Of a DNA stretch of 64,000 nt, positions 21,137 through 60,706 are shown piece after piece. The translations under genes were made by a program, and so were the position numbers. The notes below the pieces were generated by a model, which searched no databases, had not been told where the DNA came from, and was given only the letters and a program-made list of their open reading frames with translations. The first letter of the stretch is position 1; each line of letters opens with the position of its first letter. This stretch comes from Candidatus Levyibacteriota bacterium (GTDB taxonomy: Bacteria; Patescibacteriota; Microgenomatia; Levybacterales; UBA12049): contig PLZJ01000002.1 of the NCBI GenBank assembly GCA_003152105.1, positions 533,682 through 597,681 on the forward strand, read 5' to 3'.

Positions 21137-21856
21137 ATGTTAAAAGCAGTTACCTTTAGTAGTCATGGTGAAGAAGTTCATGGCACATTAATCATCCCTC
21201 AGAAATTGAAAAACAAAAATCCTGGAGTTGTTTTAATTCATGGCTTTGGGAGTAATGAAAAAAACTATATTCCACTTGGTGAACGACTGGCAGAAATTGG
21301 CATAGTTGCTTTTACGATAAATTTGAGAGGACATAAGGGAAACAATAATGTAGAGGATTTCTTAAAGGTTAAAGATGGATTTGAAGATGGCTTAGCGTCT
21401 TTTGATTTTTTAACAAGTTTTGAATTTATTGATAAAGAGAGAATTGGCATATGCGGCGCGAGTTTTGGTGGAGGTATTTGTGCATATGTGAGCGGTCGGC
21501 GAAAAGTAAAAAGTATAGTCCTTCGAGCGCCTGCTACTTATTCAGATTACCTTCTAAATCTTACTCTCCCTGAGATTTTAAAAGAAGAAGGAGATAAATT
21601 TAATAATATGGAGAATATTTTCGATACGATTCCCATCAAGAGCTTAGAAGAATTCAAAGGATATCTTTTAATTATTACTTCAGAAAATGATGAGGTTATT
21701 CCAAAAAGAATGACTGATGCGTTTTTGCATGCAGCCAGAAATGCAGCACATAAAGATTTGACAAAAATAAAAGATGCAACTCACGGATTAGACAATGATA
21801 TTTGGAAAGAGAAATTTAGGCATTTAACAATTGACTGGTTTCAAAAAACCTTGTGA
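21137..21856 (+). CDS. Alpha/beta-hydrolase (dienelactone-hydrolase/BAAT-like)
   Basis: GVVLIHGFGS oxyanion region, nucleophile elbow GASFGGG, Asp/His downstream (ENDEV…THG). Confidence 0.75.
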   Translation: MLKAVTFSSHGEEVHGTLIIPQKLKNKNPGVVLIHGFGSNEKNYIPLGERLAEIGIVAFTINLRGHKGNNNVEDFLKVKDGFEDGLASFDFLTSFEFIDKERIGICGASFGGGICAYVSGRRKVKSIVLRAPATYSDYLLNLTLPEILKEEGDKFNNMENIFDTIPIKSLEEFKGYLLIITSENDEVIPKRMTDAFLHAARNAAHKDLTKIKDATHGLDNDIWKEKFRHLTIDWFQKTL

Positions 21857-21926
21857 CCCCAGAGGAAGTCGAATCCTCGTCTTCAGGATGAGAACCTGAT
21901 GTCCTAGGCCACTAGACGATGGGGCC
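21854..21926 (-). tRNA. tRNA-Glu (anticodon CUC)
   Basis: 73-nt cloverleaf folded by hand. Acceptor GGCCCCA/TGGGGTC, D-loop with GG, anticodon loop TT-CTC-AT, T-arm GAGGA-TTCGACT-TCCTC, discriminator A, no encoded CCA. Overlaps the stop codon of 21137..21856. Confidence 0.85.
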
Positions 21927-22025: not shown

Positions 22026-22787
22026 ATGGATACTATTTACTTATCTGTTGTGATCCCTTCGTATGATGAGATGGCAAATTTACAAAAAGGAGTCTTGGAA
22101 AAAATTGACAGATTTCTAAGTAAAAAATCTTATTCATTTGAAGTAATAATAGTTGATGATGGATCAAAAGATGGAAGTATTGAATTTGTAGAAGATTTTA
22201 TTAAGGATCACTCTCAGTTTACTGTCATTAAAAATCCTCATTTTGGAAAAGCTGGAGCAGTCACTACAGGAATGTTAAAAGCAAAAGGAAAATATAGATT
22301 GTTTACTGATATGGATCAAGCTACACCGATCGAAGAGCTAGATACTGTTTTACCATTTTTAGAAAATGAACAATTTGATCTAGTAATTGGATCTCGAAAA
22401 AATCAGAGAAAAGGGGCGCCTTTAATAAGGTTATTTGTTTCAAGAAGTAATATAGTGCTAAGAAAATTAATTGTTGGTATTTTAGATATTTCTGATACGC
22501 AGTGTGGATTTAAAATATTTAAAGATAGTGTTGCTTCGGATATATTTGAAACATTTCGGAAAATAAAAAAAGGATTTATCGCAACAAATGGAGCTGCCGT
22601 AACTTCAGGATTTGATGTTGAGCTACTATATATAGCAGAAAAAAAAGGTTACAAAATTAAAGAAGTACCAGTAAAGTGGTTATATGTTGAGAGCCGACGA
22701 GTTAATCCAATAACTGATTCTGTAAAAGGATTAATTGATCTACTTTTGATTAGATTAAATATTCTAAAAGGAATATATACTACATGA
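22026..22787 (+). CDS. GT2 polyprenyl-phosphate sugar synthase (DPM1/GtrB/ArnC-like)
   Basis: LSVVIPSYDE, VIIVDDGSKDGS, DMDQ, DTQCGFK. Single-domain GT2 of the Dpm1 type. Confidence 0.85.
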   Translation: MDTIYLSVVIPSYDEMANLQKGVLEKIDRFLSKKSYSFEVIIVDDGSKDGSIEFVEDFIKDHSQFTVIKNPHFGKAGAVTTGMLKAKGKYRLFTDMDQATPIEELDTVLPFLENEQFDLVIGSRKNQRKGAPLIRLFVSRSNIVLRKLIVGILDISDTQCGFKIFKDSVASDIFETFRKIKKGFIATNGAAVTSGFDVELLYIAEKKGYKIKEVPVKWLYVESRRVNPITDSVKGLIDLLLIRLNILKGIYTT

Positions 22788-27291: not shown

Positions 27292-28953
27292 ATGAAAAAT
27301 TTTACTTTTATGCAAAACAATAAATTTTTATACGTAATACTTCTAATCTTATCTATTCCATTACTACTTCCATATATACATTTTGGCTTTTTCCCAAGTC
27401 ATGATGGAGAATGGGCAGTTGTCAGACTAACTGATATGTACAGAGAAATAAAAGATTTACAATTTCCCCCTCGTTATAGTGGTAATTTAGACTTTGGATA
27501 TGGCTATCCATTGTTTAATTTTGCATATCCTTTCCCATATTATCTAAGTTTCTTGTTTCATATCTTGAAATTTAATTTTGTAGATTCTATCAAGCTTTTA
27601 TTTGCAATAACTGTTCCTTTGTCGGGAGTATTTATGTACAAATGTGCACTTTATCTGTGGAAAAACAAATATGCTGCATTTTTTTCGGCACTTCTTTATA
27701 TATATCTTCCTTATAGATTAGTTGATTTATTTGTAAGAGGTTCTATAGGTGAATCTATTGCTTTTGCTTTATACCCAATGCTTTTTTACGCGATATTTGG
27801 ATATTTGCAATCAAAAAAACGTATATATGGCATATTTTTTTCAATACTTCTTGCCATTTTGGTAACGACACATAATATTATGGCCGTTTATTTTATTCCC
27901 TTTATAATAGGTTTTTATATTTATCTTTATTTTACTAATAAGAAAGAGCTTGTATCATTTACGCTTTATATTTTACTTGGGATATGTCTATCAACATTTT
28001 TTTGGTTACCTGCACTTTATGAAAAGCAATATATACAATTATCAGTAATACCGATAGCAGATCGAACTATTAATTTTGTTACGCCTTATCAATTGATTAT
28101 TCCAAAAATAGGTTACGGAGTTCCTAATTTGCCTGATGGTTTTTCCTATCAAATTGGTTTTGCACAGCTTTTATTATTTATTCTTATTATTGTATTTCTC
28201 CTTCGATCATTATTTTCAAAAAAACAAAAGCAAATAAAAAACTTTACATTTATTAGTATATTTAGCATCATTGCTGTTTTTTATACTTCACTTTTATTTT
28301 CTCCAAGTAATTTTTTCTGGGAACATGCCCCTCTATTTAAAGAAATAAACTACCCATGGACACTTTTGTTGCCAATTGGATTTTTGATTTGTTTACTGAC
28401 GGGGTATATTTATAGCTTCAGTAAATATACTGCATATACAATAGCGATCTTATCAATTGTTACTGTATTTTTTTATCTTCCGTATGCAAATCCAGTGTCT
28501 TATGTAAACAGAGGTGATTTTTATTACTTAACAAATGACGCTACCACTACTTCGTCTTCTGAATACACACCACTTTGGGTAAAAGAGAAGCCATTAAAAA
28601 GACCTGATATAAAAGTGTATTCATTAACAAAAAATACCACTTTCTCAAATATTGTATTTAACTCTAAAAAGATTTCATTTGATTCATACGCACAAGAGTC
28701 AAGTACTATTATAATTAATACAATATATTATCCCGGGTGGCATTTGATAATTGATGGAGTAGAAACACATATTGGAATAGTAAATCCGCAGGGAACAATG
28801 AGTATTATTATTCCAAGTGGAACTCATCATATTATGGGGATTTTTAAAGAAACACCACTTAGACTTTTTTCTGATATTATTTCTCTTGTTGCGGTTATAA
28901 TAACAGTTGTATGTTTGGCCTTTTTTCTATTAAGGAGTAAAAATGATAAGTAA
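27292..28953 (+). CDS. YfhO-like polytopic membrane protein (family C paralog)
   Basis: N-terminal PSHDGEWAVVRL…FPPRYS…GYGYPLFNFAYP. C-terminal extracytoplasmic domain with YYPGWH…DG motif. About 13 TM helices. Confidence 0.5.
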   Translation: MKNFTFMQNNKFLYVILLILSIPLLLPYIHFGFFPSHDGEWAVVRLTDMYREIKDLQFPPRYSGNLDFGYGYPLFNFAYPFPYYLSFLFHILKFNFVDSIKLLFAITVPLSGVFMYKCALYLWKNKYAAFFSALLYIYLPYRLVDLFVRGSIGESIAFALYPMLFYAIFGYLQSKKRIYGIFFSILLAILVTTHNIMAVYFIPFIIGFYIYLYFTNKKELVSFTLYILLGICLSTFFWLPALYEKQYIQLSVIPIADRTINFVTPYQLIIPKIGYGVPNLPDGFSYQIGFAQLLLFILIIVFLLRSLFSKKQKQIKNFTFISIFSIIAVFYTSLLFSPSNFFWEHAPLFKEINYPWTLLLPIGFLICLLTGYIYSFSKYTAYTIAILSIVTVFFYLPYANPVSYVNRGDFYYLTNDATTTSSSEYTPLWVKEKPLKRPDIKVYSLTKNTTFSNIVFNSKKISFDSYAQESSTIIINTIYYPGWHLIIDGVETHIGIVNPQGTMSIIIPSGTHHIMGIFKETPLRLFSDIISLVAVIITVVCLAFFLLRSKNDK

Positions 28954-30628
28954 GAAAATACCATTATATTTATTATTTGTACTGATTGTATCCGTAGGAG
29001 CAATACTTCCACTTTTTTCTCATTATTTCTTTCCAATGCATGATGATACACAAGTTGCTCGAGTATTTGAAATGAAAACTGCACTTGTTGACGGAATGTT
29101 TCCTGTTAGGTGGTCGAGTGAGTTAGGGTTTGGGTTTGGGTATCCATTATTTACCTTTTATGCACCTTTGGCATATTACATTGGTGGAGCAATTGCTCTT
29201 ATCGGATTTAACGCTTTGTTAGCTACAAAAATAATGATTGGCATAATAATGCTTATTGCAGGAATTTCAATGTATTTTTTTGCGAGGGAATATTTTAATA
29301 AACCAAGCGCTGTTGCTTCATCTATTTTATATGTATTTGCTCCGTATCACGCGTTAGATTTATATGTACGCGGAGACATTTCTGAACTATTGGCATATGG
29401 ACTGCTTCCTTTTCTTTTTTTCTGTTTTTCAAGACTTGCTTTATTTCAAAAAAACTTTGTCTATATTGCGGGAATTTCATACGCATTACTTATTATTTCC
29501 CATAATTTAACAGCATTTGAACTAACTCCGTTTTTAGCGATCTTCTGCTTCCTATTACTATTACAATCAAAGAAAAAACTAAAACTATTCAAACAGTTTT
29601 GTTACGCATTAATACTTGGACTTGTGCTTAGTGCTTTTTACTTCTTACCAGCAGTAGTTGAATCTTCGTATACAAATGTTTTGTCTGATGTAAGTAACGG
29701 TTCAAATTTTGTAAATCACTTTGTATGCATTAATCAGTTGTGGTATTCACCATGGGGATTTGGTGGTTCTGCACCAGGCTGTATTGATGGACTTTCATTT
29801 AGTTTAGGTAAACTATATATTTTCTTATCTGTATTATCATTATTTTTAATCGTGTATGCATATATGTTAAAAAAGAAAGTAAAACTATATCCGTACTTAT
29901 TTTTTCTATCAGGTTTTTTACTTTCGATTTTCTTGTTACTACAAATTTCGCAACCAGTTTGGGAACTTATAAAACCAATGGCGTTTATTCAATTTCCTTG
30001 GAGATTTTTAATATTTGCTTCATTTTTCATGTCCTTACTAGCAGGTTTTGCACTAGATGTTGTTCCTCATATTTGGAATCGTAAATCAATAAAATGGCAA
30101 ATTGGAGGCTTAGGAGTTTTGGTAATTGTTGTAAGTATTACTCAAATAAAATTATTCCAACCACATTATTATAAACAACTTTCCGTTTCAGAGTACACAA
30201 GTTTTAAAGAAGTAGCATATACTGCCTCTCTTTTATCTGATGAGTATATGCCAAAGAATTTTACAATACCAAAATCATATTCTGTTGTTCCAAAACAAGC
30301 AGTAACTTCTTTATCAAAAGGAATTACCATTGTATCTATACAAAAGAAAACACAAAAAATAACTGCACTTGTTAATGCAGAATCTGAGGGAAATGTTGTT
30401 TTTAACATAGCATATTTTCCAGGCTGGCATATGCAAGTGAATGGAAAAGATGTTACTTATACCCATTTGGATAATGGTCTTTCGGTTTTTGTGCCAAAAG
30501 GATTTCATGAAATCACTGCCGAATATAGAAATACTCTGATAGAAAATATCTCAGATATCATTTCACTCTTGGGTATACTTTATATTATTTCTGCTATAAT
30601 TCTAAAGAAGAGATCCTATGGCAAATAA
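28943..30628 (+). CDS. YfhO-like polytopic membrane protein (family C paralog)
   Basis: PMHDDTQVARVF…FPVRWSS…GFGYPLFTFYAP, C-terminal AYFPGWHMQVNG. AAGGAG SD 5 nt upstream. Confidence 0.5.
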   Translation: MISKKIPLYLLFVLIVSVGAILPLFSHYFFPMHDDTQVARVFEMKTALVDGMFPVRWSSELGFGFGYPLFTFYAPLAYYIGGAIALIGFNALLATKIMIGIIMLIAGISMYFFAREYFNKPSAVASSILYVFAPYHALDLYVRGDISELLAYGLLPFLFFCFSRLALFQKNFVYIAGISYALLIISHNLTAFELTPFLAIFCFLLLLQSKKKLKLFKQFCYALILGLVLSAFYFLPAVVESSYTNVLSDVSNGSNFVNHFVCINQLWYSPWGFGGSAPGCIDGLSFSLGKLYIFLSVLSLFLIVYAYMLKKKVKLYPYLFFLSGFLLSIFLLLQISQPVWELIKPMAFIQFPWRFLIFASFFMSLLAGFALDVVPHIWNRKSIKWQIGGLGVLVIVVSITQIKLFQPHYYKQLSVSEYTSFKEVAYTASLLSDEYMPKNFTIPKSYSVVPKQAVTSLSKGITIVSIQKKTQKITALVNAESEGNVVFNIAYFPGWHMQVNGKDVTYTHLDNGLSVFVPKGFHEITAEYRNTLIENISDIISLLGILYIISAIILKKRSYGK

Positions 30629-31331
30629 ATTAAATGAGCTTACGATTTTTTTTCCCTTTTGGAATGAAGAAAAAAATGTTGAAAAAGTTGTTAACACCGC
30701 ACTTTTAATTGCTCCAACTATTGCAAAAAAATTTGAAATCCTAGTTATTGACGATGGATCAACAGATAACACATTAGAAGTTGCAACGAAACTGGCTTCA
30801 AAACAACCGTTTGTTACCATACTCTCTCATGCTCAAAACAGAGGATACGGTGCTGCTTTAAAAGAAGGGTTTGCAAATGCTCAGTATGATTATATTGTTT
30901 TTACTGATGGAGATGACCAGTTTGATTTTTCTCAAGTTACGAAATTTGTTGAAAAAATACATACTGCTGATATTGTCATAGGATTTCGTAGTAGACGCCG
31001 TGATAACATTAGTCGTCACATATTAATGTATATGCTTCGCATATGGGATCAAGTATTATTTGGATTTCATTTTAAAGATATAGATTGTGGATTTAAAATG
31101 TTTAAAAAATCTGCAATTGAACAAATTTCACCACTTCGTTCAGAGGGTGCAATGATCACTACAGAAATTCTTGCAAAATCTAAAAAGAAGAAACAAATAA
31201 TAAAAGAAGTTGAGGTTGATCACTATCCTCGAAAATTTGGCATTCAAAGTGGTGGAGATGTGTATGTAATAGTACGAGCAGTGTTAGAGAGTTTTGTGCT
31301 ATGGTGGGATATACGAAATGGAAGATTTTAG
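30618..31331 (+). CDS. GT2 polyprenyl-phosphate sugar synthase (DPM1/GtrB-like)
   Basis: VIDDGSTDNT, FTDGDDQ, DCGFK. Confidence 0.85.
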   Translation: MANKLNELTIFFPFWNEEKNVEKVVNTALLIAPTIAKKFEILVIDDGSTDNTLEVATKLASKQPFVTILSHAQNRGYGAALKEGFANAQYDYIVFTDGDDQFDFSQVTKFVEKIHTADIVIGFRSRRRDNISRHILMYMLRIWDQVLFGFHFKDIDCGFKMFKKSAIEQISPLRSEGAMITTEILAKSKKKKQIIKEVEVDHYPRKFGIQSGGDVYVIVRAVLESFVLWWDIRNGRF

Positions 31332-32781
31332 TATTGAGTCAGTATCAAAGAAATCATTAACAGGTTTTTTAGCCTTAAGTTCTCGTACCTTCTTTGTTAA
31401 AATTCTAGGACTAATTACCAGTTTTGTTTTAACAATATTTTTAGATAGATCGAGTTATGGCGTTTATTTTATCGCGTCATCAATTGTCGTTTTTTTAGTG
31501 TATTTTCAAGATATTGGACTTGCAGCTTCACTTATTCAAAAAAAAGAAAAACCTACACTTGAGGAACTACGTACAACATTTACCATTCAGCAAATTTTAG
31601 TATTACTCATTATTATTCCGTCCCTTTATTTCTCAAAATATATAGCAAACTTTTATCATTTAAATACATCGGGATTGTATTTACTCGACGCATTGCTCAT
31701 ATCATTTTTTATCTCATCGCTAAAAACAATACCCACAGTACTACTTGAGCGAGATTTGCACTTCCATAAATTAGTATTACCAGATATTGTAGAAAATGTT
31801 TCATATAATTTATTGCTTGTTATCTTTGCAGTAATGGGATTTGGTATAACAAGTTTTACGATTGCAGTAGTTGTCAGAAGCATACTTGGGCTTTTTGTAA
31901 TTTATTATATACAACCATGGGAAATAGGTATATCTTTAAATTTCGAAGTATTTAAGAAATTGGCTTCATTTGGCCTACCGTTTCAAGCAAATAGTTTATT
32001 GGCACTTCTTAAAGATAACTTGGTTAGTTTATTTATTGGAAAACTACTACCATTTGATCAAGTAGGACTTGTTGGGTTTGCACAAAAAATTTCCTATCTT
32101 CCATCTAATCTAATAATGGATAATGTTATCCGTGTAACGTTTCCTTCTTATAGTAGACTGCAGCATGATAAAGCAGGTTTAAAAATTGTAATTGAAAAGT
32201 CGCTTTTTTTAATTGGACTACTCATTTTCCCTCTTGTTGTACTTCTTATTATATTTTCAGGAGACTTTATTAAATATGTTCCTATTGCCCACTATCAAAA
32301 ATGGGCACCGTCAGTTATGTCCATTACATTTTTCTCATTAAATATATTATTTGCATCAATAACAGTTCCATTAACCAATTTCTTAAATGCTATAGGAAAA
32401 GTAAAACTTACGCTCTATGCAATGGTACTTTTGACTATTTTTACCTGGGGTCTTACTCCCTTATTTATCTTTCTTTATGGCTTTAATGGTGTTGCTATTG
32501 CATCTTTTATTGTGGCAGCAAGTTTGATATTAATTCTCCCTTTTGTAAAAAGACAATTAGAATTTTCGTTTGTAAAACCTATTATAAAACCACTTGTTGG
32601 AGCACTTGGACTTTTGGCGCTAGCTTTAACAACGACCATATTTATTAACAGCTTCATGCTCCTTATGTTTGCTGTCTTTTTCTCTGGTTTTGTTTACCTG
32701 TTTATTATGTACATGCTTGCCAAAGATGATATGAAAAGCATTTATTCATTTAGTAGGAATGCAATATTTAAATCAAAATGA
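31318..32781 (+). CDS. Wzx-like oligosaccharide flippase (polysaccharide biosynthesis protein, MOP superfamily)
   Basis: About 12-14 TM helices with PST-family N-terminal pattern (SLTGFLALSSRTFFVKILGLIT…). The track start 31294 is a TTG; first in-frame ATG is 31318. Confidence 0.7.
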   Translation: MEDFSIESVSKKSLTGFLALSSRTFFVKILGLITSFVLTIFLDRSSYGVYFIASSIVVFLVYFQDIGLAASLIQKKEKPTLEELRTTFTIQQILVLLIIIPSLYFSKYIANFYHLNTSGLYLLDALLISFFISSLKTIPTVLLERDLHFHKLVLPDIVENVSYNLLLVIFAVMGFGITSFTIAVVVRSILGLFVIYYIQPWEIGISLNFEVFKKLASFGLPFQANSLLALLKDNLVSLFIGKLLPFDQVGLVGFAQKISYLPSNLIMDNVIRVTFPSYSRLQHDKAGLKIVIEKSLFLIGLLIFPLVVLLIIFSGDFIKYVPIAHYQKWAPSVMSITFFSLNILFASITVPLTNFLNAIGKVKLTLYAMVLLTIFTWGLTPLFIFLYGFNGVAIASFIVAASLILILPFVKRQLEFSFVKPIIKPLVGALGLLALALTTTIFINSFMLLMFAVFFSGFVYLFIMYMLAKDDMKSIYSFSRNAIFKSK

Positions 32782-33698
32782 AAAATGTATTTGTTAGTAT
32801 TATAAATTATAACGGTAATAAGAATACGAAAGAGTGTTTGCATTCGATTGAAAAACTTAATCTAAAAGATATACGTCTCACTGTTATAGTCATTGATAAT
32901 AATTCAAAAATTCCTTTTGAAATTCCCGATTCATATTCAAAAAGTATCGCAATAAAAGTAATACGAAGTAATAGTAATCTAGGATTTTCAGGGGGACATA
33001 ACTTAGCAATCAAATATGCACTCGAACAAAACGCAGATTATGTATTTGTCTTAAATAACGATACAACACTTGAAAAAGATTCGTTAACTTATCTTTTGTC
33101 TCCATTTGAAACTAGCAATAACATAGGCATTACTGTACCTAAAATATATTTTTCAAAAGGACATGAGTTCCATAAAGATAGATACAAGGAAAATGAGTTA
33201 GGATATGTAATATGGTATGCAGGCGGAGGCATTAATTGGCAAACTATTTTTGGGATGCATAGAGGAGTAGATGAGGTGGATAACGGACAATATGATACGC
33301 AGGAGAAAACAGAAACTGCAACTGGATGCGCAATGCTCATTAAAAAAGAAGTGTTTAACAAAATAGGAAATTTTAATGAAAAATACTTTCTATACTATGA
33401 AGATCAAGATTTTAGTCTCAGAGCTACTCAAGTAGGTTTTTCAATTGTATATGTTCCAAAAGCAATTGTCTGGCATTTAAATGCTTCCTCAACAGGTGGA
33501 TCTGGATCGGAGTTACAAGACTATTTTATTTCAAGAAATAGAATGTATTTTGGATTTGTGTATGGAAGTATCAAGATTAAATATGCTCTTTTTAAAGAAA
33601 GCATGAGACTTTTACTTTCTGGCAGGAAGTCTCAAAAAAATGGTATACGTGATTTTTATCTTGGAAGATTTAAAAAAGGCAGCTTTCTACTCGATTAG
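32778..33698 (+). CDS. GT2 family glycosyltransferase (soluble, rhamnosyl/galactosyl-transferase-like)
   Basis: VSIINYNG, VIDNNS, LNNDT…, YYEDQDFSLR. Confidence 0.8.
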   Translation: MKNVFVSIINYNGNKNTKECLHSIEKLNLKDIRLTVIVIDNNSKIPFEIPDSYSKSIAIKVIRSNSNLGFSGGHNLAIKYALEQNADYVFVLNNDTTLEKDSLTYLLSPFETSNNIGITVPKIYFSKGHEFHKDRYKENELGYVIWYAGGGINWQTIFGMHRGVDEVDNGQYDTQEKTETATGCAMLIKKEVFNKIGNFNEKYFLYYEDQDFSLRATQVGFSIVYVPKAIVWHLNASSTGGSGSELQDYFISRNRMYFGFVYGSIKIKYALFKESMRLLLSGRKSQKNGIRDFYLGRFKKGSFLLD

Positions 33699-33712
33699 AT
33701 TATTGTTTGTCT

Positions 33713-35275
33713 ATGAAAAACATATATAAATTAAAAACAAAAGTAAAAACTATTCTGTTTTTTGTTGTAATGCCACTTTTTTTTCTTTTTATGCTCTATG
33801 TATATTATCAAAAAGCTGTTGCCTTTAGTTTTATAGATGAATTCAATAACTTTATGGCAGGCTATTACATACTGCAAGGCAAATCGCTTTATTCACAAAT
33901 ATTTTTTCAACACCAGCCCTTAATGGCATATATGAGTGCTTTTATTCAGCTCGTGCTTCATCCTGATACCTTATATAAGTTAATTTTGTATCACCGAATA
34001 TTTATTATTTTTGTCTCTATACTTTTTGACATACTACTTATCTATCGTTTTTCCTATATTGGTGTAGCGTTTAGTATTTTCTTTGAGTTATCTAAATTTT
34101 ATTTATTTGGAAGTCTATTTTTAGGAGAATCTTTTATCGTTTATCCTATTGTTTATTTATTTGGGCTTGCTTGGGAAAAACTACAAAAAAAAGTACTTTC
34201 ACTGCAAGATATTTTGATAAGTGGATTTTTTACTTTTTTAGTTGTGTGTACTCGTGAACCTTTCATTCCTGTAACGCTTTGTTTGTATGGATACGTACTC
34301 ATTGGAAAGTTAACAAAAAGCAAAGCATACAGCATTTGTTTTTTTCTTTTTTTAACATCATTAACACTTTTGACTTTACCACTTAGACAATATATGTTCG
34401 ACATAATTACAGTCAATTACAATAGCGTAGCTCTATCTGAAACCGCTGCTAATGGTATTCGGGGTATTGGCATTTTTCAAATATTTATATATCCATTTCT
34501 GTTATTTTTTGGTGGATCATGGAACATATTGAGAGAAATTATTGTTTTGTGTGACGTAATGCTACTCGGGATGTTGATATATGCATTTTATATTGGGAAA
34601 CGATTAAGTGTTTTATTTATACTTTTTTTTCTTGGGTTAGCAGCAGTACGTATAGTAACTCCAGGAACTATTTATTTTTCTGCTTATCATATTTTACCTT
34701 GGTACGGCTTATTTATCATGTCTTTATTTTTATTACTCAGTTTGTTCTATACAAAAAAATATAAACGTATATTTATAGTACTAGGTCTTTATAGTTTTAT
34801 CATCTGTTTGTTTATGCTTTTTTCAACACAATCTTTTATCTTTGAAAAGAATAATAGAAGTAATGATTTTACGACAAATTATGAACGATACTTTGTATTT
34901 GGATCTGTTATCCATGCGCTTGCAAAGCCCACCGATACAGTATTTGTTGATTCATGGGATAGCTTAATCTATTGGCAAGCAAAACAGCCTGTTGCATATC
35001 CGTATATATTTTATTATGTCCCGATGAATAATTACCCAATCTTTACTAATGCAAGAGTCGTGATGTTTAAGAATAACCCGCCTGATTTTTATTATTTTTA
35101 CTGTGGAGAAACAAAGTACTATTCACCTGGTATACCAAATATATATAAAAATGAATATAAACAGCTGTATAATATAACTGGACCTTCTTGTTTATATGTG
35201 CTTACTAAAAAAATTCCACAGATATCGCAAAATCAGTGGAATAGTGCTAAACAATTAGGATTTTATTTACCATGA
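33713..35275 (+). CDS. Polytopic membrane protein, family D paralog (uncharacterised, putative GT-C-like)
   Basis: First loop DEFNN-x-MAGYYILQG…HQPLMAY…SAFIQ, shared with 46192 (DEFDN…GGSYILHG…HGPLAYF…SAFIQ). Confidence 0.45.
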   Translation: MKNIYKLKTKVKTILFFVVMPLFFLFMLYVYYQKAVAFSFIDEFNNFMAGYYILQGKSLYSQIFFQHQPLMAYMSAFIQLVLHPDTLYKLILYHRIFIIFVSILFDILLIYRFSYIGVAFSIFFELSKFYLFGSLFLGESFIVYPIVYLFGLAWEKLQKKVLSLQDILISGFFTFLVVCTREPFIPVTLCLYGYVLIGKLTKSKAYSICFFLFLTSLTLLTLPLRQYMFDIITVNYNSVALSETAANGIRGIGIFQIFIYPFLLFFGGSWNILREIIVLCDVMLLGMLIYAFYIGKRLSVLFILFFLGLAAVRIVTPGTIYFSAYHILPWYGLFIMSLFLLLSLFYTKKYKRIFIVLGLYSFIICLFMLFSTQSFIFEKNNRSNDFTTNYERYFVFGSVIHALAKPTDTVFVDSWDSLIYWQAKQPVAYPYIFYYVPMNNYPIFTNARVVMFKNNPPDFYYFYCGETKYYSPGIPNIYKNEYKQLYNITGPSCLYVLTKKIPQISQNQWNSAKQLGFYLP

Positions 35276-36021
35276 AGATAAGTGCTATTATACTTGCCAA
35301 AAATGAAGAACAAGTTATTGCAGATTGCATAGATAGTGTTTCCTTTTGTGATCAAATAATTGTTGTTAATAATAATTCTACTGATAGAACTCTCGAAATT
35401 GCAAAAAGAACCAAAGCTGAAGTTATTACGTGTGATGATACTGATTTTTCTATTCTTAGAAATAAGGGTTTAGAAAAAGCAAAAAATGAATGGGTATTAT
35501 ATGTAGATGCAGATGAACGAATAAGTAAGGAGCTTGCACATGAAATAGAGCAAAAGACAAAAGTTTATATTGATATCAATTATTATTTGCTTCCTCGAAA
35601 GAACTTTTATTTAGGGAATCATCCTTGGCCAAAAATCGAATACATGCCAAGGTTATTTAAAAAAGTTGCACTAAAAGGATGGATGGGAAAATTGCATGAA
35701 AGCCCACAAGTTTCTGGGAGACAAGATGTATGCGTGCATTTTTTGCTACATTTCACACATCGAAATCTTTCTGAAATGTTAGAAAAAACAATAATTTGGT
35801 CTGAAATAGAAGCGGCGCTGCGTTATAAGGCAAATCACCCTAGAGTTACTTGGTGGAGATTTCCAAGAGTTATGATACCTACTTTTTTTACCTATTATGT
35901 TTCACAAAAGGGATATAAAGCTGGGACTGTTGGATTAATTGAAAGTATATACCAAAGCTTTAGTATATTTATTACCTATGCGAGACTTTGGGAAATGCAG
36001 CAAAAACAACTAAAGAAATAA
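35272..36021 (+). CDS. GT2 family glycosyltransferase (KdtX/WaaE-like, family E paralog)
   Basis: ISAIILAKNEE, IIVVNNNSTDRT, YVDADER. C-terminal YYLLPRKNFYLGNHPWP is shared with 49515. Confidence 0.75.
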   Translation: MKISAIILAKNEEQVIADCIDSVSFCDQIIVVNNNSTDRTLEIAKRTKAEVITCDDTDFSILRNKGLEKAKNEWVLYVDADERISKELAHEIEQKTKVYIDINYYLLPRKNFYLGNHPWPKIEYMPRLFKKVALKGWMGKLHESPQVSGRQDVCVHFLLHFTHRNLSEMLEKTIIWSEIEAALRYKANHPRVTWWRFPRVMIPTFFTYYVSQKGYKAGTVGLIESIYQSFSIFITYARLWEMQQKQLKK

Positions 36022-36111
36022 TCTTCAATAGGTAATACCCAATATTTCCGTGATTACAATAGTCGAGCTGAAAATAGAGGTAAAAATTGATACAATTAAT
36101 AAGTATTGCTA

Positions 36112-37173
36112 ATGAAAAAAATCGGTATTTTTGATCCTTATCTCAATACTTTAGGAGGTGGAGAAAGATATATTCTAAGTATTGCTTCGTGTCTTGCACA
36201 GCAAAGTGATGTAAGTATTTTTTGGGATGATGATTCTATATTGTTGGATGCTGAGAAGAAATTTAATATTCCACTAGCAAAAGTTCAATTTACTGCAAAT
36301 ATATTCTCCAAACATACATCACTTTTTAAAAGGTTTTTACAAGAAAGATCATATGACGCAATTTTTTATATGAGTGACGGAAGTATACCTTTTTTACATA
36401 GTAAAAATAATATTCTAATTTTCCAATTTCCAGTAAATTGGGTAAAAGGAAATAATGCGAGAACAATTTTAAAACTCAGAAAAATTAATAGGAGCTTAGT
36501 TTATTCTGACTTTGTAAAACAATATATTGATAAAACATTTGGCATTACATCTTTGGTACTACCACCACCGATAACGAGCGAATTTAACAAAAATGTTAAA
36601 AAAGAAAATATTATCATGACAGTAGGAAGGTTTACGCAGGGGATGAATACAAAAAAACAAGAAGTGTTAATTGAGGCATTTAAACAATTTTACGATAAAG
36701 GAAATAAAAAATGGACATTTTATATCATCGGTTCATATTTAGATATAGACGCAGTATATGTCGATAGATTAATACAACAAGCAAAAGGATATCCAATTAA
36801 AATAGTAACTGATATGTCGTTTAAGCAGCTAAGTGAAATTTATCAAAAAGCTAAAATATATTGGCATGCAGCAGGATACGGCGAAGATTTAGAAATGTTT
36901 CCTCATAAAGCAGAACATTTTGGTATTACAACTGTAGAAGCAATGCAAAACGGAGTAGTGCCAGTTGTTATCAACGCAGGAGGACAAAAGGAAATTGTAG
37001 AAGATAAAAGAAATGGGTTAGTATGGAATACGCAAGAAGAGTTAATTTCCTATACAATACGACTTACAAAAAGTATTACTTTTTGGAAGCAACTTTCTAA
37101 ACACGCTATCCAAGATGCGAAAGAATATAATATGGATATATTTTGTAAAAAAGTAAACGCGTTACTTATATGA
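36112..37173 (+). CDS. GT4 family (GT-B fold) glycosyltransferase
   Basis: EHFGITTVEAMQNGVVPVV (E-x7-E). TGaTACAAT at 36087-36096 upstream. The track start is a TTG. Confidence 0.8.
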   Translation: MKKIGIFDPYLNTLGGGERYILSIASCLAQQSDVSIFWDDDSILLDAEKKFNIPLAKVQFTANIFSKHTSLFKRFLQERSYDAIFYMSDGSIPFLHSKNNILIFQFPVNWVKGNNARTILKLRKINRSLVYSDFVKQYIDKTFGITSLVLPPPITSEFNKNVKKENIIMTVGRFTQGMNTKKQEVLIEAFKQFYDKGNKKWTFYIIGSYLDIDAVYVDRLIQQAKGYPIKIVTDMSFKQLSEIYQKAKIYWHAAGYGEDLEMFPHKAEHFGITTVEAMQNGVVPVVINAGGQKEIVEDKRNGLVWNTQEELISYTIRLTKSITFWKQLSKHAIQDAKEYNMDIFCKKVNALLI

Positions 37174-39422
37174 AGAACTTTCTTTTTGCATTTATTTTTG
37201 TCATTATAAGCGCTACATCGTTTCGAGCATTTTTTCTTCACGGATATATGCCAATTCCTACTGATGCACTGATGGGTTTGTATCATCCTTTTCGAGATCT
37301 TTTTGCTTATACTAATCCAAATGGTATTGCTTTTAAAAATTTTCTCATTACCGATCCTTTTCGACAAGAATATCCCTGGAGATATCTTGCAATAACAGTT
37401 GAAAAATCATTCCAATTTCCGCTTTGGAATCCATATTCTTTTTCAGGTATGCCTCTTATGGCAAATTTGCAAACTGCTGCATTTTATCCTTTAAATATAT
37501 TTTTTTATATATTCCCATTTCCATTTTCTTGGAGTTTTCTTATTTTCACAGAGCCACTGCTTGCTGGAATATTTATTTTCTGGTATTTAAAAAATTTAAA
37601 ACTTTCAGTATATGCATGTTTACTGGGGGGAATTTCATTTTCCTTTTGCGGTTTTTCAGTAGCATGGCTTGAATGGGGCACTGTTTTACATACTGCATTA
37701 TGGTTTCCACTCATCTTACTTTCAATTGATAGGATAACTTCGCAAAAGAAAACTTCAATAAAATGGAACATAGTTTTGTTTTTGGCGTTAATTAGTTCGT
37801 TTTTTGCAGGCCATTTACAAATCTTTTTCTACATACTTTTAGCATCATTGGCATACTTTATATATAGAAGTATGCGGTACAAATTAAGTCAGAAACAATA
37901 TGTATATTTACTAGTATTTTCTTTACTTTCAATTCTTATTACTTCAATACAATGGATACCTTTGTTTCAACTGATTATGTATTCAGCCAGGCAGAGTGAT
38001 CAGTTAAATTGGCAACAGCCAGGATGGTTTATTCCTTGGCAACATCTTGTTCAGTTTGTCGTGCCTGATTTTTTTGGCAATCCCACTACACTCAATTATT
38101 TTGGGGTATGGAATTACGGAGAATTAATTGGTTATATCGGTGTTCTACCTCTACTCTTAGTAGGTTATGCAGTGTATGCAAGAAAAGAAAAGACTGTACC
38201 ATTTATGTTTCTTTTGTTATTTATCAGTTTATTATTTTCTTTACCAAACTTTGTGAGTATCTTGCCCTTTGTATTTCACGTTCCCTTTTTATCTACATCT
38301 CAACCAACAAGGCTTATGATACTTATCGATTTTTCCCTATGTGTACTTTCAGCATTTGGTTTGCAAGAACTAGTTACTAGTCAAAAAAAGCATTACGCAC
38401 CTCTATATTTTTTTGGAGTAGTATTTATATTAGTATGGGCTATGATTTTGTTTGGTTTAGGAAAACTAAACGTTTCATCTTCTGACATTCTGGTTGCAAA
38501 ACATAATACTTATTTTCCAACGTTACTTTTGTTTGCATCAATACTGCTTATCTATTTGTTTATTTCAAAGAATTTTAATAAAAGTGATAATTACAAAAGA
38601 GCACTAATTATTGCAATGTTAGCACTGACCCTGTTTGACTTACTTCGTTTTTCAGATAAATTTAATCCTTTTACCCCAAATAGATATTTATTTCCACAAA
38701 CATCTGCAATTTCATATTTACAAAATCAACCCGGACAATTTAGAATTATGGAAAATGATGCAAGAATTTTTCCTCCAAATATATCAATCATGTATAAACT
38801 ACAAAGTGTAGATGGTTATGATCCGTTATATTTATTGCAATACGGAGAACTTATTATTGCGTCTGAACGAGGAAAACCAAATATTGCGCCACCATTTGGA
38901 TTTAATAGGATAATTACGCCAACAAATTATTCTTCTAAAATAATGGATTTACTTGGAGTTAAATATGTGATGAGTTTATCAGATATATCTTCTCCAAAAT
39001 TAACTAAGGTTTTTCAAGAAGGACAAACGAGAATATACCAAAACAAGCTAGCATTTCCTCGCATGTTTTTTGTTAACTCAATAATAATGTCTACTAATAA
39101 GCAAGATGAAATAAACTTAGTATTTAATACAAACTTGCACGTACAAGCAATAGTTGAAACAAGTAACAATTCTTTGGACTCATCGTTTACAGTAGACAAT
39201 TCTTCAACGATAAGTTCTATCATATATAGTGAAAACGAAGTTTCAGCAGTTGTTAATAATAATCATGATGGATTTTTAGTATTTACCGATAGTTATTATC
39301 CTTCATGGCATGTTCGTATTGATGGACAAGAAGTACCTATATATAAAACTGATTATGCACTTCGAGGTATATTTATACCAAAAGGGATGCATAATATAGT
39401 TTTTTACGATACACTATTTTAA
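37170..39422 (+). CDS. YfhO-family polytopic membrane glycosyltransferase-like protein (750 aa, family C)
   Basis: N-terminal loop FPLWNPYSFSGMPL, about 14 TM helices, large C-terminal domain ending SYYPSWHVRIDGQEV. Length and architecture match the YfhO family. Confidence 0.6.
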   Translation: MKNFLFAFIFVIISATSFRAFFLHGYMPIPTDALMGLYHPFRDLFAYTNPNGIAFKNFLITDPFRQEYPWRYLAITVEKSFQFPLWNPYSFSGMPLMANLQTAAFYPLNIFFYIFPFPFSWSFLIFTEPLLAGIFIFWYLKNLKLSVYACLLGGISFSFCGFSVAWLEWGTVLHTALWFPLILLSIDRITSQKKTSIKWNIVLFLALISSFFAGHLQIFFYILLASLAYFIYRSMRYKLSQKQYVYLLVFSLLSILITSIQWIPLFQLIMYSARQSDQLNWQQPGWFIPWQHLVQFVVPDFFGNPTTLNYFGVWNYGELIGYIGVLPLLLVGYAVYARKEKTVPFMFLLLFISLLFSLPNFVSILPFVFHVPFLSTSQPTRLMILIDFSLCVLSAFGLQELVTSQKKHYAPLYFFGVVFILVWAMILFGLGKLNVSSSDILVAKHNTYFPTLLLFASILLIYLFISKNFNKSDNYKRALIIAMLALTLFDLLRFSDKFNPFTPNRYLFPQTSAISYLQNQPGQFRIMENDARIFPPNISIMYKLQSVDGYDPLYLLQYGELIIASERGKPNIAPPFGFNRIITPTNYSSKIMDLLGVKYVMSLSDISSPKLTKVFQEGQTRIYQNKLAFPRMFFVNSIIMSTNKQDEINLVFNTNLHVQAIVETSNNSLDSSFTVDNSSTISSIIYSENEVSAVVNNNHDGFLVFTDSYYPSWHVRIDGQEVPIYKTDYALRGIFIPKGMHNIVFYDTLF

Positions 39423-39423
39423 T

Positions 39424-40377
39424 ATGAAAATTAGTATCATTATTCCAAACTATAATGGAGGTCATTTGCTTGCGGTAAATTTACCAAAATTAGTAAGTGC
39501 GGTAAATGCGTATAAAGATGCGGACTTTGAAATAATTATTTCAGATGATGTTTCAACAGATAACTCCGAAGATGTAATCACACGTTTTAAAAAAAATAAC
39601 GAAGAAAACGATATAGCTATTAAAACTAATTTTAATAGAAACATAAAAGATTCGGGATTTTCTAAAAATGTAAATCGAGGAGTTGCAATTTCAACCGGCG
39701 ACATAATACTACTATTAAATTCTGATGTTATTCCAGAAAAAGATTTTCTGCTTTCACTTATTCCACATTTTCAAAAAGTAAAAGTTTTTGCTGTTGCATG
39801 TATGGAAGAAAGTATTGAAGATAAAGAAAAAGATCTAAGAGGAAGAGGTATTGGAAAATGGGAAAAAGGATTTCTTGTGCATAGTGGTGGTGATGTTAAT
39901 GGAGACAAAACGCTTTGGGCAAGTGGAGGAAGTAGTGCGTTTAGAAAAAGTATTTGGCAAGAACTTGGAGGTTTAGATATTCTTTATAATCCGTTTTATT
40001 GGGAAGATATAGATCTTTCATATAGAGCTTGGAAGAGCGGATATGAAGTAGATTTTGAAAAAGATAGCATAGTCAAACATGAGCACGATAAAGGTGCTAT
40101 TCGAAATTCATATAGTAAACAAGAAATTACTTCAATTGCATATCGCAATCAATTTATATTTGTCTGGAAAAATATTACTGATAAGAAATTGCTATTTTCT
40201 CATATCTATTGGCTGCCATATCATTTTGCAATGGCAATAAAATCTAAGAACACCGCACTTTTAAGCGGATTTTTTAATGCTTTTGTTTTACTTCCAAAAA
40301 TTATACAATCTCGACTAAAGACAAAACAAAAGTTTATTCTTAGTGACAAAAAGTTATTAGATCAGTTCCACGTATGA
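39424..40377 (+). CDS. GT2 family glycosyltransferase
   Basis: ISIIIPNYNGG, IISDDVSTDNS, LLNSDV. Confidence 0.8.
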   Translation: MKISIIIPNYNGGHLLAVNLPKLVSAVNAYKDADFEIIISDDVSTDNSEDVITRFKKNNEENDIAIKTNFNRNIKDSGFSKNVNRGVAISTGDIILLLNSDVIPEKDFLLSLIPHFQKVKVFAVACMEESIEDKEKDLRGRGIGKWEKGFLVHSGGDVNGDKTLWASGGSSAFRKSIWQELGGLDILYNPFYWEDIDLSYRAWKSGYEVDFEKDSIVKHEHDKGAIRNSYSKQEITSIAYRNQFIFVWKNITDKKLLFSHIYWLPYHFAMAIKSKNTALLSGFFNAFVLLPKIIQSRLKTKQKFILSDKKLLDQFHV

Positions 40378-41090
40378 AATTATCAATAATAATTCCTGTA
40401 TTTAATGAATCAAAAACAATAAAAGAAGTTGTTAATGATGTTGTTAAGCTTACCATTCCACATGTTGACAAGGAAATAATTATTATTGATGATTGTTCGA
40501 TTGATAATACCGTTTTGGAAGTGAATAAATTGGTAAGTAAAAATAAATCAATACATTTTTATAAGCATGACAGTAATCAGGGGAAAGGAGCCGCAGTTAG
40601 AACAGGTATTTCTCACGCAACTGGGGATTACATTATTATTCAGGATGCGGATTTAGAATATAACCCAGAACAAATTAAAAAATTAGTTGAACCAATTTAT
40701 AACAAAGATGCGATAGTCGTTTTTGGCACAAGATTAAATCGTTTACCAAATCTTACAAAAGATGAAAACCGTCCATTATTTTTGTTCCATTACTTTGGTA
40801 ATCGATTTTTATCACTTATTACGAGCTTACTTTATGGACAGTGGATAACTGATATGGAAACTTGTTACAAACTTTTTCCAAGATCAGCACTTTCAAATAC
40901 GAGACTCAATGCAAAGGGATTTGCATTTGAACCGGAAATTACAGCAAAATTACTTAAGAATGGATATAAAATAATGGAAATTCCTATAACTACGACTCCA
41001 AGAGGATACGATGAAGGAAAAAAATTAAATGCTGCAAAAGAAGGCCCTTTGGCTCTTTGGACGTTACTAAAATACAGATTCGTTAACTAA
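40374..41090 (+). CDS. GT2 polyprenyl-phosphate sugar synthase (DPM1/GtrB-like)
   Basis: LSIIIPVFNE, IIIDDCSIDNT, IQDADLEY, ETCYKLF. Confidence 0.85.
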   Translation: MKLSIIIPVFNESKTIKEVVNDVVKLTIPHVDKEIIIIDDCSIDNTVLEVNKLVSKNKSIHFYKHDSNQGKGAAVRTGISHATGDYIIIQDADLEYNPEQIKKLVEPIYNKDAIVVFGTRLNRLPNLTKDENRPLFLFHYFGNRFLSLITSLLYGQWITDMETCYKLFPRSALSNTRLNAKGFAFEPEITAKLLKNGYKIMEIPITTTPRGYDEGKKLNAAKEGPLALWTLLKYRFVN

Positions 41091-55418: not shown

Positions 55419-56690
55419 ATGATTAAAAAAATTAAAATACTCTTATCTCATCCTTTAATTTCCGGTTCAACAATACTTCTTGCTGGTAATTTTATAGCAA
55501 ATATATTGAATTGGATATTTAATTTACTCATTGGAGGGAGGCATTTACTATCTGTTGCAGATTATGGAGTATATTCGACATTAGTATCGTTAACAATACT
55601 GGTTGGAATTTTTCAAAGTTCATTTACAAATATTATAGCTCGGTATACTGCCAAAGTGAGTGTGAATAAGGATCAAAAAACGTTAAATTCTATTCTATTT
55701 TCAGGAGGAAAAACAATTCTGTTATTTGCAATTTGTCTTTTGATTGTTCTTCTCCTTTGCTTACCTTTTCTTGCTTCATACTTACATATAGTAGATATAC
55801 GGTTACTACTTATTCTCTATGTTTATATATTTATTGTCATTTTATCTTCCCTACCTCTTGGAATATTGCAAGGGCAACTGCGCTTCTTAAATATATCACT
55901 ATACACAATTGCAACGAGCCTGCTAAAGCTTATTTTAGGAATCATCTTTATAGTACTTGGTTATCAAATATATGGTGTGATTATTGCAGTATTTCTATCT
56001 GGATTACTGCCTATTTTATACATTTCATCATCACTGCTGACTCAGTTTAAAAAAACGGCAAATAGTGGAAAGCAACATCCAGATTTTATGGCAGAATTTA
56101 GAGGTAAATCGCTAGAATTTTTACTGGCTACACTTGGAATAACTGCAATAACTTCACTTGATATAATTCTTGTCAGGCATTTTATGACGCCAGATTTAGC
56201 AGGTAAATATGCTGCGCTTTCAGTTATGGGAAAGGCAATATTGTATCTTACTTCTCCTATGTATTTTGCTTTTTTCCCACTTATAGTACAAAAAAAAGAA
56301 AAGAAAGAATCATTAAAAACTACGGTTTTAATTGCTTCCTTGTTTATCGGATTGGTTTCTGGTTTTTTGACATTGCTTTATTTTATATTTCCAAACTTTA
56401 TTCTTCACATATTTTTTCCAGCAAAGGAATATGCCGTACTTTCTCCTTATCTTGGGTTATTTGCGTTATTTATGATGATATTTTCTTTTGTAATGCTTTT
56501 ATATAATTATCTTTTATCTATTGGTCAGACAAAAATATATAGAATAACGCTTTTTGCAGCTGCATTATTTATACTTCTTATATATATGTATCACCAAAAT
56601 TTATATGAAGTAATCTATATACTACTTGCAATTTCTCTTTTACTTTTAGGTTCATTTTTACTATACTTAACACTTGATGAGCAAAACTAA
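55419..56690 (+). CDS. Wzx-like flippase / polysaccharide biosynthesis membrane protein
   Basis: About 12 TM helices, LAGKYAAL motif, PST-like N-terminus. Confidence 0.6.
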   Translation: MIKKIKILLSHPLISGSTILLAGNFIANILNWIFNLLIGGRHLLSVADYGVYSTLVSLTILVGIFQSSFTNIIARYTAKVSVNKDQKTLNSILFSGGKTILLFAICLLIVLLLCLPFLASYLHIVDIRLLLILYVYIFIVILSSLPLGILQGQLRFLNISLYTIATSLLKLILGIIFIVLGYQIYGVIIAVFLSGLLPILYISSSLLTQFKKTANSGKQHPDFMAEFRGKSLEFLLATLGITAITSLDIILVRHFMTPDLAGKYAALSVMGKAILYLTSPMYFAFFPLIVQKKEKKESLKTTVLIASLFIGLVSGFLTLLYFIFPNFILHIFFPAKEYAVLSPYLGLFALFMMIFSFVMLLYNYLLSIGQTKIYRITLFAAALFILLIYMYHQNLYEVIYILLAISLLLLGSFLLYLTLDEQN

Positions 56691-57420
56691 GCTTCTATCT
56701 GTTATTGTGCCTGCATATAAACAAGGTAAAACCATAGAAGAAGATATTCGTTCATTGGTAACAACTCTTAAAACACTTCCCTATAATTTTGAATTAATAA
56801 TTGTTGTTGATGGGTTTATTGATAATACCTACAAAGTTGCTAAAAAAATGCACATCAAGGGACTCTTTGTAATTGGGTATGAGCAGAACCATGGTAAAGG
56901 GTATGCGATTCAATATGGAGTTTCAAAAGCTAAAGGAGATATAATTGGATTTATTGATGCAGGTATGGATATTAATCCAACGGAGATTGCTATTGCGCTC
57001 GATATCATGGAATGGAATAAGGCAGATATTGTCATCGGAAGCAAACTACATCCTGACTCAAAAGTAAAATATCCTTTGTGGAGACATATAACTTCATGGG
57101 GATATCGGTCATTACTATTTCTTTTATTTCATTTAAGCGTAAGAGATACGCAAGTTGGCTTAAAATTTTTTAGAAAAAAAGTAGCCAAAAAAGTTTTTCC
57201 TAAAATTTTAGTGAAAAAATTTGCTTTTGATGTTGAAGTTCTTGCAGTTGCAATATCTTATGGTTACAATAACATATATGAATCTCCAATCATCCTTAAT
57301 TTTAATGGTAAAGGGTCTATATCGTCGAGAAATTTTTGGAAAATAATTGGTTCAATGATGTGGGATACCGGTGCAGTATTTTATCGATTAAAGATACTTA
57401 GATATTATTCACGAAAATAA
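56674..57420 (+). CDS. GT2 polyprenyl-phosphate sugar synthase (DPM1/GtrB-like)
   Basis: LSVIVPAYKQ, LIIVVDGFIDNT, FIDAGMDINP, DTQVGLKFF. Confidence 0.8.
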   Translation: MMSKTKLLSVIVPAYKQGKTIEEDIRSLVTTLKTLPYNFELIIVVDGFIDNTYKVAKKMHIKGLFVIGYEQNHGKGYAIQYGVSKAKGDIIGFIDAGMDINPTEIAIALDIMEWNKADIVIGSKLHPDSKVKYPLWRHITSWGYRSLLFLLFHLSVRDTQVGLKFFRKKVAKKVFPKILVKKFAFDVEVLAVAISYGYNNIYESPIILNFNGKGSISSRNFWKIIGSMMWDTGAVFYRLKILRYYSRK

Positions 57421-59716: not shown

Positions 59717-59723
59717 TATACTG

Positions 59724-60704: not shown

Positions 60705-60706
60705 CT

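Follow-up and report, generated by a model that had tools for sequence, protein, structure and literature searches.

Three putative GT-C glycosyltransferases of the YfhO/PF10131 superfamily in a conserved glycan gene cluster of Microgenomates

Genes at the locus

The stretch of DNA analysed here (the window) comprises 64,000 nucleotides of a Candidatus Levyibacteriota bacterium (assembly GCA_003152105.1, contig PLZJ01000002.1, positions 533,682 to 597,681 of the forward strand). It is low in GC (about 30%) and belongs to a metagenomic scaffold of about 1.14 Mb. Three of its genes, named A, B and C here, were singled out in a preliminary description as a trio encoding YfhO-like membrane proteins, and their coordinates were confirmed by the listing of open reading frames (ORFs) and by translation. 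Their products are very probably paralogous integral-membrane glycosyltransferases with a GT-C fold, members of the YfhO/PF10131 superfamily, encoded in a cell-envelope glycan cluster of about 40 kb found in Microgenomates.

27292 to 28953, forward strand: gene A, an ORF of 553 amino acids (aa) for a PF10131-type (YfhO-related) GT-C glycosyltransferase with about 12 transmembrane (TM) helices
28943 to 30628, forward strand: gene B, an ORF of 561 aa, paralog of A
37170 to 39422, forward strand: gene C, an ORF of 750 aa for a canonical GT-C protein of the patescibacterial YfhO family

The start of B and the stop of A overlap by 11 nucleotides, and the two are full-length paralogs with 30% identity over their whole length (BLASTP, E 2e-55). 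Between C and the A/B pair, BLASTP aligned only the final residues, about 55 in number. Comparison of family profiles with hhalign related the A/B family to the C family with a probability of 96.9% (E 1.3e-10), residues 13–283 of A lying opposite residues 10–321 of C. At this profile level, the N-terminal membrane core and first loop of C prove to be a diverged form of the A/B module that carries insertions. The A/B family also aligned with the PMT_2 paralogs of the window (82.9%, E 9e-6), from TM2 to TM7 only.

Family assignment

Searches of Pfam were judged against gathering scores of 28.5 bits for YfhO (PF09586) and 26.4 bits for PTPS_related (PF10131). C exceeded the former with 109.4 bits, and B exceeded both, with 58.1 bits for YfhO and 38.5 bits for PF10131. 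The A family is tied to the same superfamily through PF10131, which was matched at E<=1e-3 by 29 of the 37 members of its alignment (best E 4e-12); YfhO was matched at this threshold by only six of the 37. The relationship to YfhO proposed earlier was therefore upheld, the three proteins being GT-C membrane proteins of the YfhO/PF10131 type.

Homologs of A (911 matches of 545–560 aa, about 50% identity) were found in Patescibacteria. Most of them carry a precomputed PF10131 tag, and some are named '6-pyruvoyl-tetrahydropterin synthase-related protein' by NCBI. An exhaustive search with B returned 12,245 representative clusters at E<=1e-3, including 2,616 at E<=1e-30, and nearly all of the 150 matches listed have 550–580 aa. 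Because of this abundance and uniform length, the form of about 555 aa, once taken for a shortened and undescribed subtype, is to be regarded as the normal, very common form and the standard of its branch. For C, 2,354 homologs of about 750 aa were retrieved; all 120 listed are tagged PF09586, some of them bearing the name 'YfhO family protein'. A, B and C join the catalogued YfhO and PF10131 GT-C families as new members, and none of them represents an undescribed subtype. A scan of NCBIfam gave nothing for A or C. For B it gave a match to MmpA at 15 bits, which was dismissed as meaningless.

It had also been suggested that the HD...R pattern of the first loop links these proteins to the 6-pyruvoyl-tetrahydropterin synthase (PTPS)-related family. 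Since the PF10131 match of B begins only at residue 70 (model position 1), past this loop, and spans model positions 1–314 of 621, the loop is not the link to that model. None of the three proteins showed similarity to soluble 6-pyruvoyl-tetrahydropterin synthase, Pfam at E<=0.01 returning only PF10131, YfhO or PMT_2. Judged by the predicted fold, which is GT-C, 'PTPS-related' is a misnomer for A, B and C.

Fold and membrane topology

The AlphaFold2 model of A, built from an alignment of 37 sequences, reached a predicted local distance difference test (pLDDT) value of 90 and a predicted template modelling score of 0.91. It contains about 12 TM helices, a first extracytoplasmic loop (EL1) at residues 30–95 with an amphipathic helix at 37–54, and, past TM11, a short conserved helical linker (408–425) followed by eight β-strands (442–518) and the final TM helix (522–552). 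When this model was compared with the PDB by Foldseek, ranks 1 to 25 were all occupied by GT-C proteins (STT3/PglB/AglB, ArnT, EmbA/B/C, AftA/B/D and Pmt4), with probabilities of at least 0.99, E-values from 1.6e-5 to 1e-2, TM-scores of 0.38–0.45 and sequence identities of 11–14%. As far as the model goes, the fold class of A is clearly GT-C.

These matches bear on the alternative that A and B are not transferases at all, being instead polymerases, ligases or flippases (Wzy-, WaaL- or SEDS-like), or dead scaffolds for neighbouring GT-C enzymes. Both proteins are polytopic, and their genes stand next to that of a Wzx-like flippase, in a position where one would look for a Wzy-type polymerase; none was recognised in the cluster. 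Besides, Rismondo et al. raised the possibility of substrate flipping by YfhO (PMC5836110). However, the 50 Foldseek matches listed include no WaaL, Wzy or SEDS protein, and B belongs by Pfam to YfhO and to PF10131, a member of the GT-C clan CL0111 (PMC7801869). Neither protein looks dead, because both keep all putative catalytic residues, the outward-facing charged positions being conserved at 96–100% in the B family and invariant in the A family. Such a non-transferase role is therefore considered highly improbable.

In A, the short loops that the model helices place on the cytoplasmic side are rich in K/R and contain no D/E. Its invariant polar residues (D38, R45, D55, R61, R149, E154, H194, E244, E424 and the YPGW motif) all fall in outer loops or at outer helix ends. 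In keeping with the preliminary description, the conserved first loop is thus predicted to be extracytoplasmic and not cytoplasmic. Both A and B have about 12 TM helices and a loop of 123–130 aa between the last two, whereas C is predicted to end in an extracytoplasmic region of 254 aa that is not followed by a terminal TM helix. The C-type YfhO proteins of Patescibacteria end right past the β-domain (...FYDTLF, then stop), and the consensus of the C family does likewise.

The first extracytoplasmic loop

27379 to 27576, forward strand: EL1 of A (residues 30–95), with H37-D38, R45, D55, FPPR61Y and G71YPLF as invariant columns; predicted outside from the helix map and the positive-inside rule
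29015 to 29146, forward strand: EL1 of B (residues 25–68), with H33-D34, R40, FPVR56W and G66YPLF, conserved at 98–100% among 129 diverse representatives
37239 to 37523, forward strand: EL1 of C (residues 24–118), diverged, with PIPTD32, R42-D43, D62, YPWR71Y and G93-MPLM as well as insertions; the columns are invariant in the C family and hhalign aligns them to the A/B loop

One common loop pattern had been attributed to all three proteins. A and B do carry P-S/M-H-D...R...FPxR[YW]...G[YF]GYPLF, but C does not contain it literally: its loop reads PIPTD32...YPWR71Y...SFSGMPLM, has two insertions and has no His ahead of the Asp. Segments of the C loop are nevertheless placed by hhalign opposite those of the A/B loop. 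By sequence comparison, the C loop is homologous to the A/B loop yet clearly different from it, and only A and B carry the 'HD' signature. The spacing also needs correction: in place of HD-x3-H/R, A has HD-x6-R and B has HD-x5-R.

Conservation was scored from the family alignments, with 129 representatives of at most 50% pairwise identity in the case of B, and the HD...R residues proved to be conserved well beyond chance in the A and B families. D38, R45, D55, R61 and GYPLF are invariant among the 37 sequences of the A family. For B, the values are 99% for H33, 98% for D34, 98% for R40 and 100% for R56, and the whole set of H33, D34, R40, R56, R143-G144, E148, H187, E240 and E434 is kept at 96–100%. 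In the C family, D32 never varies. All of the approximately 15 GT-C-like paralogs of the window have an Asp 8–12 residues past TM1, including the WDE of the PMT_2 copies, and the 'HD' of A and B would occupy the canonical acidic position of GT-C EL1.

A further segment, absent from the preliminary description, was observed in A at residues 408–430 (28513–28581), on the outer face directly past TM11. In the A family it reads, nearly invariantly, Y-x-T-N-D-A-T-T-T-S-S-x-E-[YL]-x-P-L-W-V, and its counterpart in B is S-x2-S-x-E-Y-x-P. It is conserved as strongly as the EL1 motifs and may contribute to the active site or to the binding of the acceptor.

The C-terminal β-domain

28609 to 28851, forward strand: β-domain of A (residues about 440–520, YYPGWH at 479–484), modelled as an eight-stranded β-sandwich between TM11 and the final TM12; DSSP strands 442–518
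30293 to 30529, forward strand: β-domain of B, with YFPGWH, matching positions 745–824 of the 835 of the Pfam YfhO model (E 2.9e-7)
39126 to 39407, forward strand: β-domain of C, with YYPSWH, matching positions 728–822 of 835 (E 7.1e-15)

The C-terminal motif said to be common to the trio, [YF][YF]P[GS]WH, was borne out, reading Y479-YPGWH in A, Y491-FPGWH in B and Y709-YPSWH in C, and BLASTP over the domain of about 55 aa was significant. It might be argued that this likeness arose by chance or from low-complexity, AT-rich composition, so that no meaningful trio exists; the genome has about 30% GC, and A and C align by BLASTP only at E 3e-5 over 37 residues. This is refuted by the alignment of B with C (E 6e-11), by the match of the B and C fragments to the same C-terminal segment of the YfhO model and by the profile relationship of the N-terminal cores. 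Moreover, [YF][YF]P[GS]W is found in none of the other 49 of the 52 window ORFs of at least 120 aa. The probability of a chance origin is practically nil.

The fragment of A gives no direct Pfam match and is linked to the others by its BLASTP alignment with C and by the full-length alignment of A with B. Because the fragments of B and C map to model positions 728–824 of 835, the YYPGW domain is assigned by sequence to the known C-terminus of the Pfam YfhO model and is not a new domain. A separate model of residues 400–524 of A gave the same eight strands (pLDDT 85–94). The earlier idea of a carbohydrate-binding β-sandwich holds for the β-sandwich, which is present in the models; carbohydrate binding is undemonstrated, and the domain model had no PDB match at E<=1e-3. 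The nearest structures, with a best E-value of 1.8e-3, were the tail protein of a phage and β-sandwich domains accessory to hydrolases of the families GH29 (fucosidases), GH146, GH30/GH5, GH39 and GH44. The domain was accordingly rejected as a proven carbohydrate-binding module (CBM), no known CBM in the PDB being matched significantly (E<=1e-3).

The gene cluster and its conservation

30618 to 31331, forward strand: small soluble GT2 of 237 aa overlapping the stop of B, a candidate polyprenyl-phosphate sugar synthase; residues 5–215 match ArnC (3e-16) and PfDPMS (6.5e-13) in the PDB
31294 to 32781, forward strand: Wzx-like flippase (Polysacc_synt_3, PF13440, 162 bits), a conserved neighbour by synteny
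40374 to 41090, forward strand: second small soluble GT2, of 238 aa, downstream of C, a candidate polyprenyl-phosphate sugar synthase; residues 1–216 match the P. furiosus Dol-P-Man synthase (DPMS) in the PDB (2.4e-16)

From 22 to 64 kb, the window is occupied by a single glycan cluster of about 40 kb on the forward strand, with very small intergenic gaps. It encodes GT2s, GT1s, two Wzx-like flippases, an MptB-like GT-C protein, many PMT_2 paralogs, epimerases, heptose-pathway-like proteins and a GT9. The best solved relatives of the GT2s at 30618 and 40374 are ArnC, P. furiosus DPMS and GtrB, aligned across the whole catalytic domain. Together with the GT2s at 22026–22787 and 56674–57420, these two (30618–31331 and 40374–41090) make four paralogs of about 240 aa that all resemble ArnC/DPMS/GtrB.

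Synteny was studied in GTDB species representatives, 541 of which carry a relative of A, using loci from the best 80. These 80 genomes belong to Levy-, Roizman-, Gottesman- and Curtissbacteria (Microgenomates). B lies directly downstream of A at all 68 of 68 loci. A GT2 and a Wzx follow within three genes downstream of A at 59 of 62, a GT2 and an MptB-like gene stand upstream at 51 of 58, and a C-type YfhO is found no more than 10 kb downstream at 33 of 52. The flanking GT2s, previously called DPM1-like, do resemble polyprenyl-phosphate sugar synthases, and the linkage to such a GT2 is the one kept at 59 of 62 loci. The conserved core order is GT2 – MptB-like – PMT_2 – A – B – GT2 – Wzx – GT2s – GT1 – YfhO, and the gene order is the same in three homolog-bearing contigs.

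Several other features of the cluster and its relatives were observed. At four loci (L041, L045, L050 and L073), an extra inverted block of PMT_2, C and A genes, all on the reverse strand, stands directly upstream of the normal A-B pair; in these Microgenomates genomes, a portion of the cluster has been duplicated locally in inverted orientation. At L009, L013, L016 and about 40 other loci, records of metagenome-assembled genomes titled 'uncultured Gammaproteobacteria bacterium' contain a Microgenomates-type cluster with 44–50% identity to A; these titles are evidently mislabelled. Within less than 40 kb of the window (14550–53334), in a genome of about 1.1 Mb, lie about 15 polytopic GT-C-like genes, starting at 14550, 22784 (MptB-like), 23990, 25588, A, B, 33707, C, 41092, 42793, 44505, 46192, 47962, 50201 and 51748, and those at 14550, 33707, 46192 and 50201 have no Pfam match. 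A tRNA-Glu gene (anticodon CTC; 21853–21926, reverse strand) marks exactly the upstream edge of the cluster, ahead of the first GT2 (22026). Beside the cluster, at 57423–61768, a candidate activated-heptose pathway comprises two fusion proteins, one joining a PfkB-type sugar kinase with a cupin/mannose-6-P isomerase-like domain and the other a cytidylyltransferase-like domain with a HAD phosphatase, as well as an NAD-dependent epimerase and a heptosyltransferase of family GT9. A heptose-type pathway is unexpected for a bacterium that has no outer membrane or lipopolysaccharide.

Comparison with known systems and proposed function

The characterised YfhO proteins work in a three-component system, in which the GT2 CsbB makes C55-P-GlcNAc, GtcA (GtrA family) is predicted to flip it and YfhO passes the sugar on to lipoteichoic or wall teichoic acid outside the cell (PMC5836110, PMC8035078). 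B and C score above the Pfam threshold of this family, whose known members include YfhO of B. subtilis and S. aureus and Lmo1079 of L. monocytogenes. YfhO has a similar plan, in which numerous TM helices come first and an extracytoplasmic domain stands close to the C-terminus (PMC5836110). The YYPGW β-domain falls at the end of the YfhO model, and the A, B and C genes are linked to a GT2 resembling polyprenyl-phosphate sugar synthases. On the other hand, about 125 extracytoplasmic residues lie between the last two TM helices in A and B compared with 389 in B. subtilis YfhO, and the last TM helix, present in A, B and B. subtilis YfhO, is missing in C. The partner GT2s are devoid of TM helices, no GtrA-family flippase is encoded nearby, and the hosts are Patescibacteria. 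To our knowledge, teichoic acids have not been documented in Patescibacteria.

PF10131, a member of the GT-C clan, was listed as a family of unknown function in a 2021 survey (PMC7801869). A and B resemble it in length (about 550 aa against 621 model positions) and in the TM core, and differ from it in that the Pfam match covers only the first half of the model, positions 1–314, past the HD...R loop. Among the GT-C_A enzymes that gave the best structural matches of A (STT3/PglB/AglB, ArnT, EmbA/B/C, AftA/B/D and Pmt4), likenesses are the conserved Asp past TM1, at the start of the amphipathic EL1 helix, and an EL2 segment P-[YW]-x6-7-R-x4-E that hhalign aligns with the PMT_2 paralogs of the window. 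Outside the membrane, Emb and AftD likewise possess β-sandwich domains, which are carbohydrate-binding modules (PMC3044687, PMC8035078). The conserved set of A and B (HD, PxR, RGx3E, H-N) is different, and the β-domain of A has no significant match to known CBMs.

The mechanism proposed here is modelled on CsbB/GtcA/YfhO and comparable three-component systems. In its first step, a small cytoplasmic GT2 (30618, 40374 or a paralog) would use a nucleotide sugar to charge polyprenyl phosphate with a sugar. The lipid-linked sugar would then be flipped across the membrane, a Wzx-like gene being adjacent and a GtrA-type gene absent from the cluster, and the GT-C enzyme (A, B or C) would move the sugar to an envelope acceptor on the outer face. 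The catalytic centre may consist of the Asp at the start of EL1 (H37-D38 in A, H33-D34 in B, T31-D32 in C) together with, in A, the conserved outward-facing R45, R61, R149-G-x3-E154, H194 and E244. The YYPGW β-sandwich outside the membrane most plausibly helps to hold the acceptor polymer. Homology, fold, topology and the fact that linkage to DPMS/ArnC-like GT2s is conserved make it most likely that A, B and C perform a step equivalent to that of YfhO on an envelope polymer or lipoglycan of Microgenomates.

Several points weigh against this assignment. A itself scores 16.5 bits on PF10131, under the gathering score, and has no YfhO match. There is no close solved structure, the best TM-scores being 0.38–0.45, and phmmer searches of B and C against PDB sequences gave no meaningful match. 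Neither has any member of the PF10131 branch a demonstrated activity (PMC7801869). The catalytic role proposed for the conserved Asp follows from its position in the sequence, as hhalign against the PMT_2 paralogs skipped EL1 and did not place D38 on the PMT 'DE' motif. The small GT2s have no TM helices, unlike ArnC, GtrB and PfDPMS, and no GtrA-type flippase occurs among the cluster ORFs of the window scanned with Pfam. Finally, about 15 GT-C-like genes stand against four small GT2s, which makes donor-enzyme pairings uncertain.

The acceptor may also be a protein: A and B could be O-glycosyltransferases (PMT- or PgfM-like) acting on Ser/Thr-rich surface proteins, pilins or S-layer rather than on a glycopolymer. 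The GT-C_A fold is common to PMT and STT3, the cluster holds many PMT/PMT_2 paralogs, and the small GT2s score, under the cut-off, on the PgfS and AglJ models of protein glycosylation. Nevertheless, the conserved Wzx-like flippase, the several GT1/GT2 genes and the MptA/B-family GT-C fit the assembly of a polymer or lipoglycan, the characterised YfhO enzymes target teichoic acids (PMC8035078), and no acceptor protein gene is linked. This alternative is considered unlikely, and transfer to an envelope glycopolymer is preferred.

For the glycopolymer-directed enzymes, the invariant linkage of A and B suggests that these obligately paired genes encode proteins that act sequentially on the same product or form a heteromer. 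A more far-reaching proposal, which is quite unlikely on present evidence, is that the pair, whose genes are invariably adjacent and in many cases overlap, constitutes an obligate heteromeric GT-C enzyme (cf. Pmt1-Pmt2 and EmbA-EmbB) and builds, with the MptB-like, PMT_2, Wzx-like and C proteins, an undescribed lipoglycan or wall polymer throughout the Microgenomates lineage. If true, this would amount to an extracytoplasmic assembly line like that of actinobacterial lipoarabinomannan in ultra-small bacteria.

Significance

Taken alone, A, B and C add little, as their families are already catalogued, and their value lies in the context. Our literature search found no paper tying YfhO to Patescibacteria and nothing relevant on GT-C enzymes of the Candidate Phyla Radiation or on mannosyltransferases of Microgenomates. 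For the PF10131 branch, which has no assigned activity, the HD, R, RGx3E and H residues offer concrete targets for mutagenesis. Follow-up might be rewarding only for the conserved cluster of Microgenomates and for the obligate pairing of A with B. A genome of about 1.1 Mb spends about 40 kb on envelope glycosylation, with about 15 GT-C-like membrane enzymes, and the persistence of the core gene order in Levy-, Roizman-, Gottesman- and Curtissbacteria suggests that a surface glycopolymer is conserved among Microgenomates.

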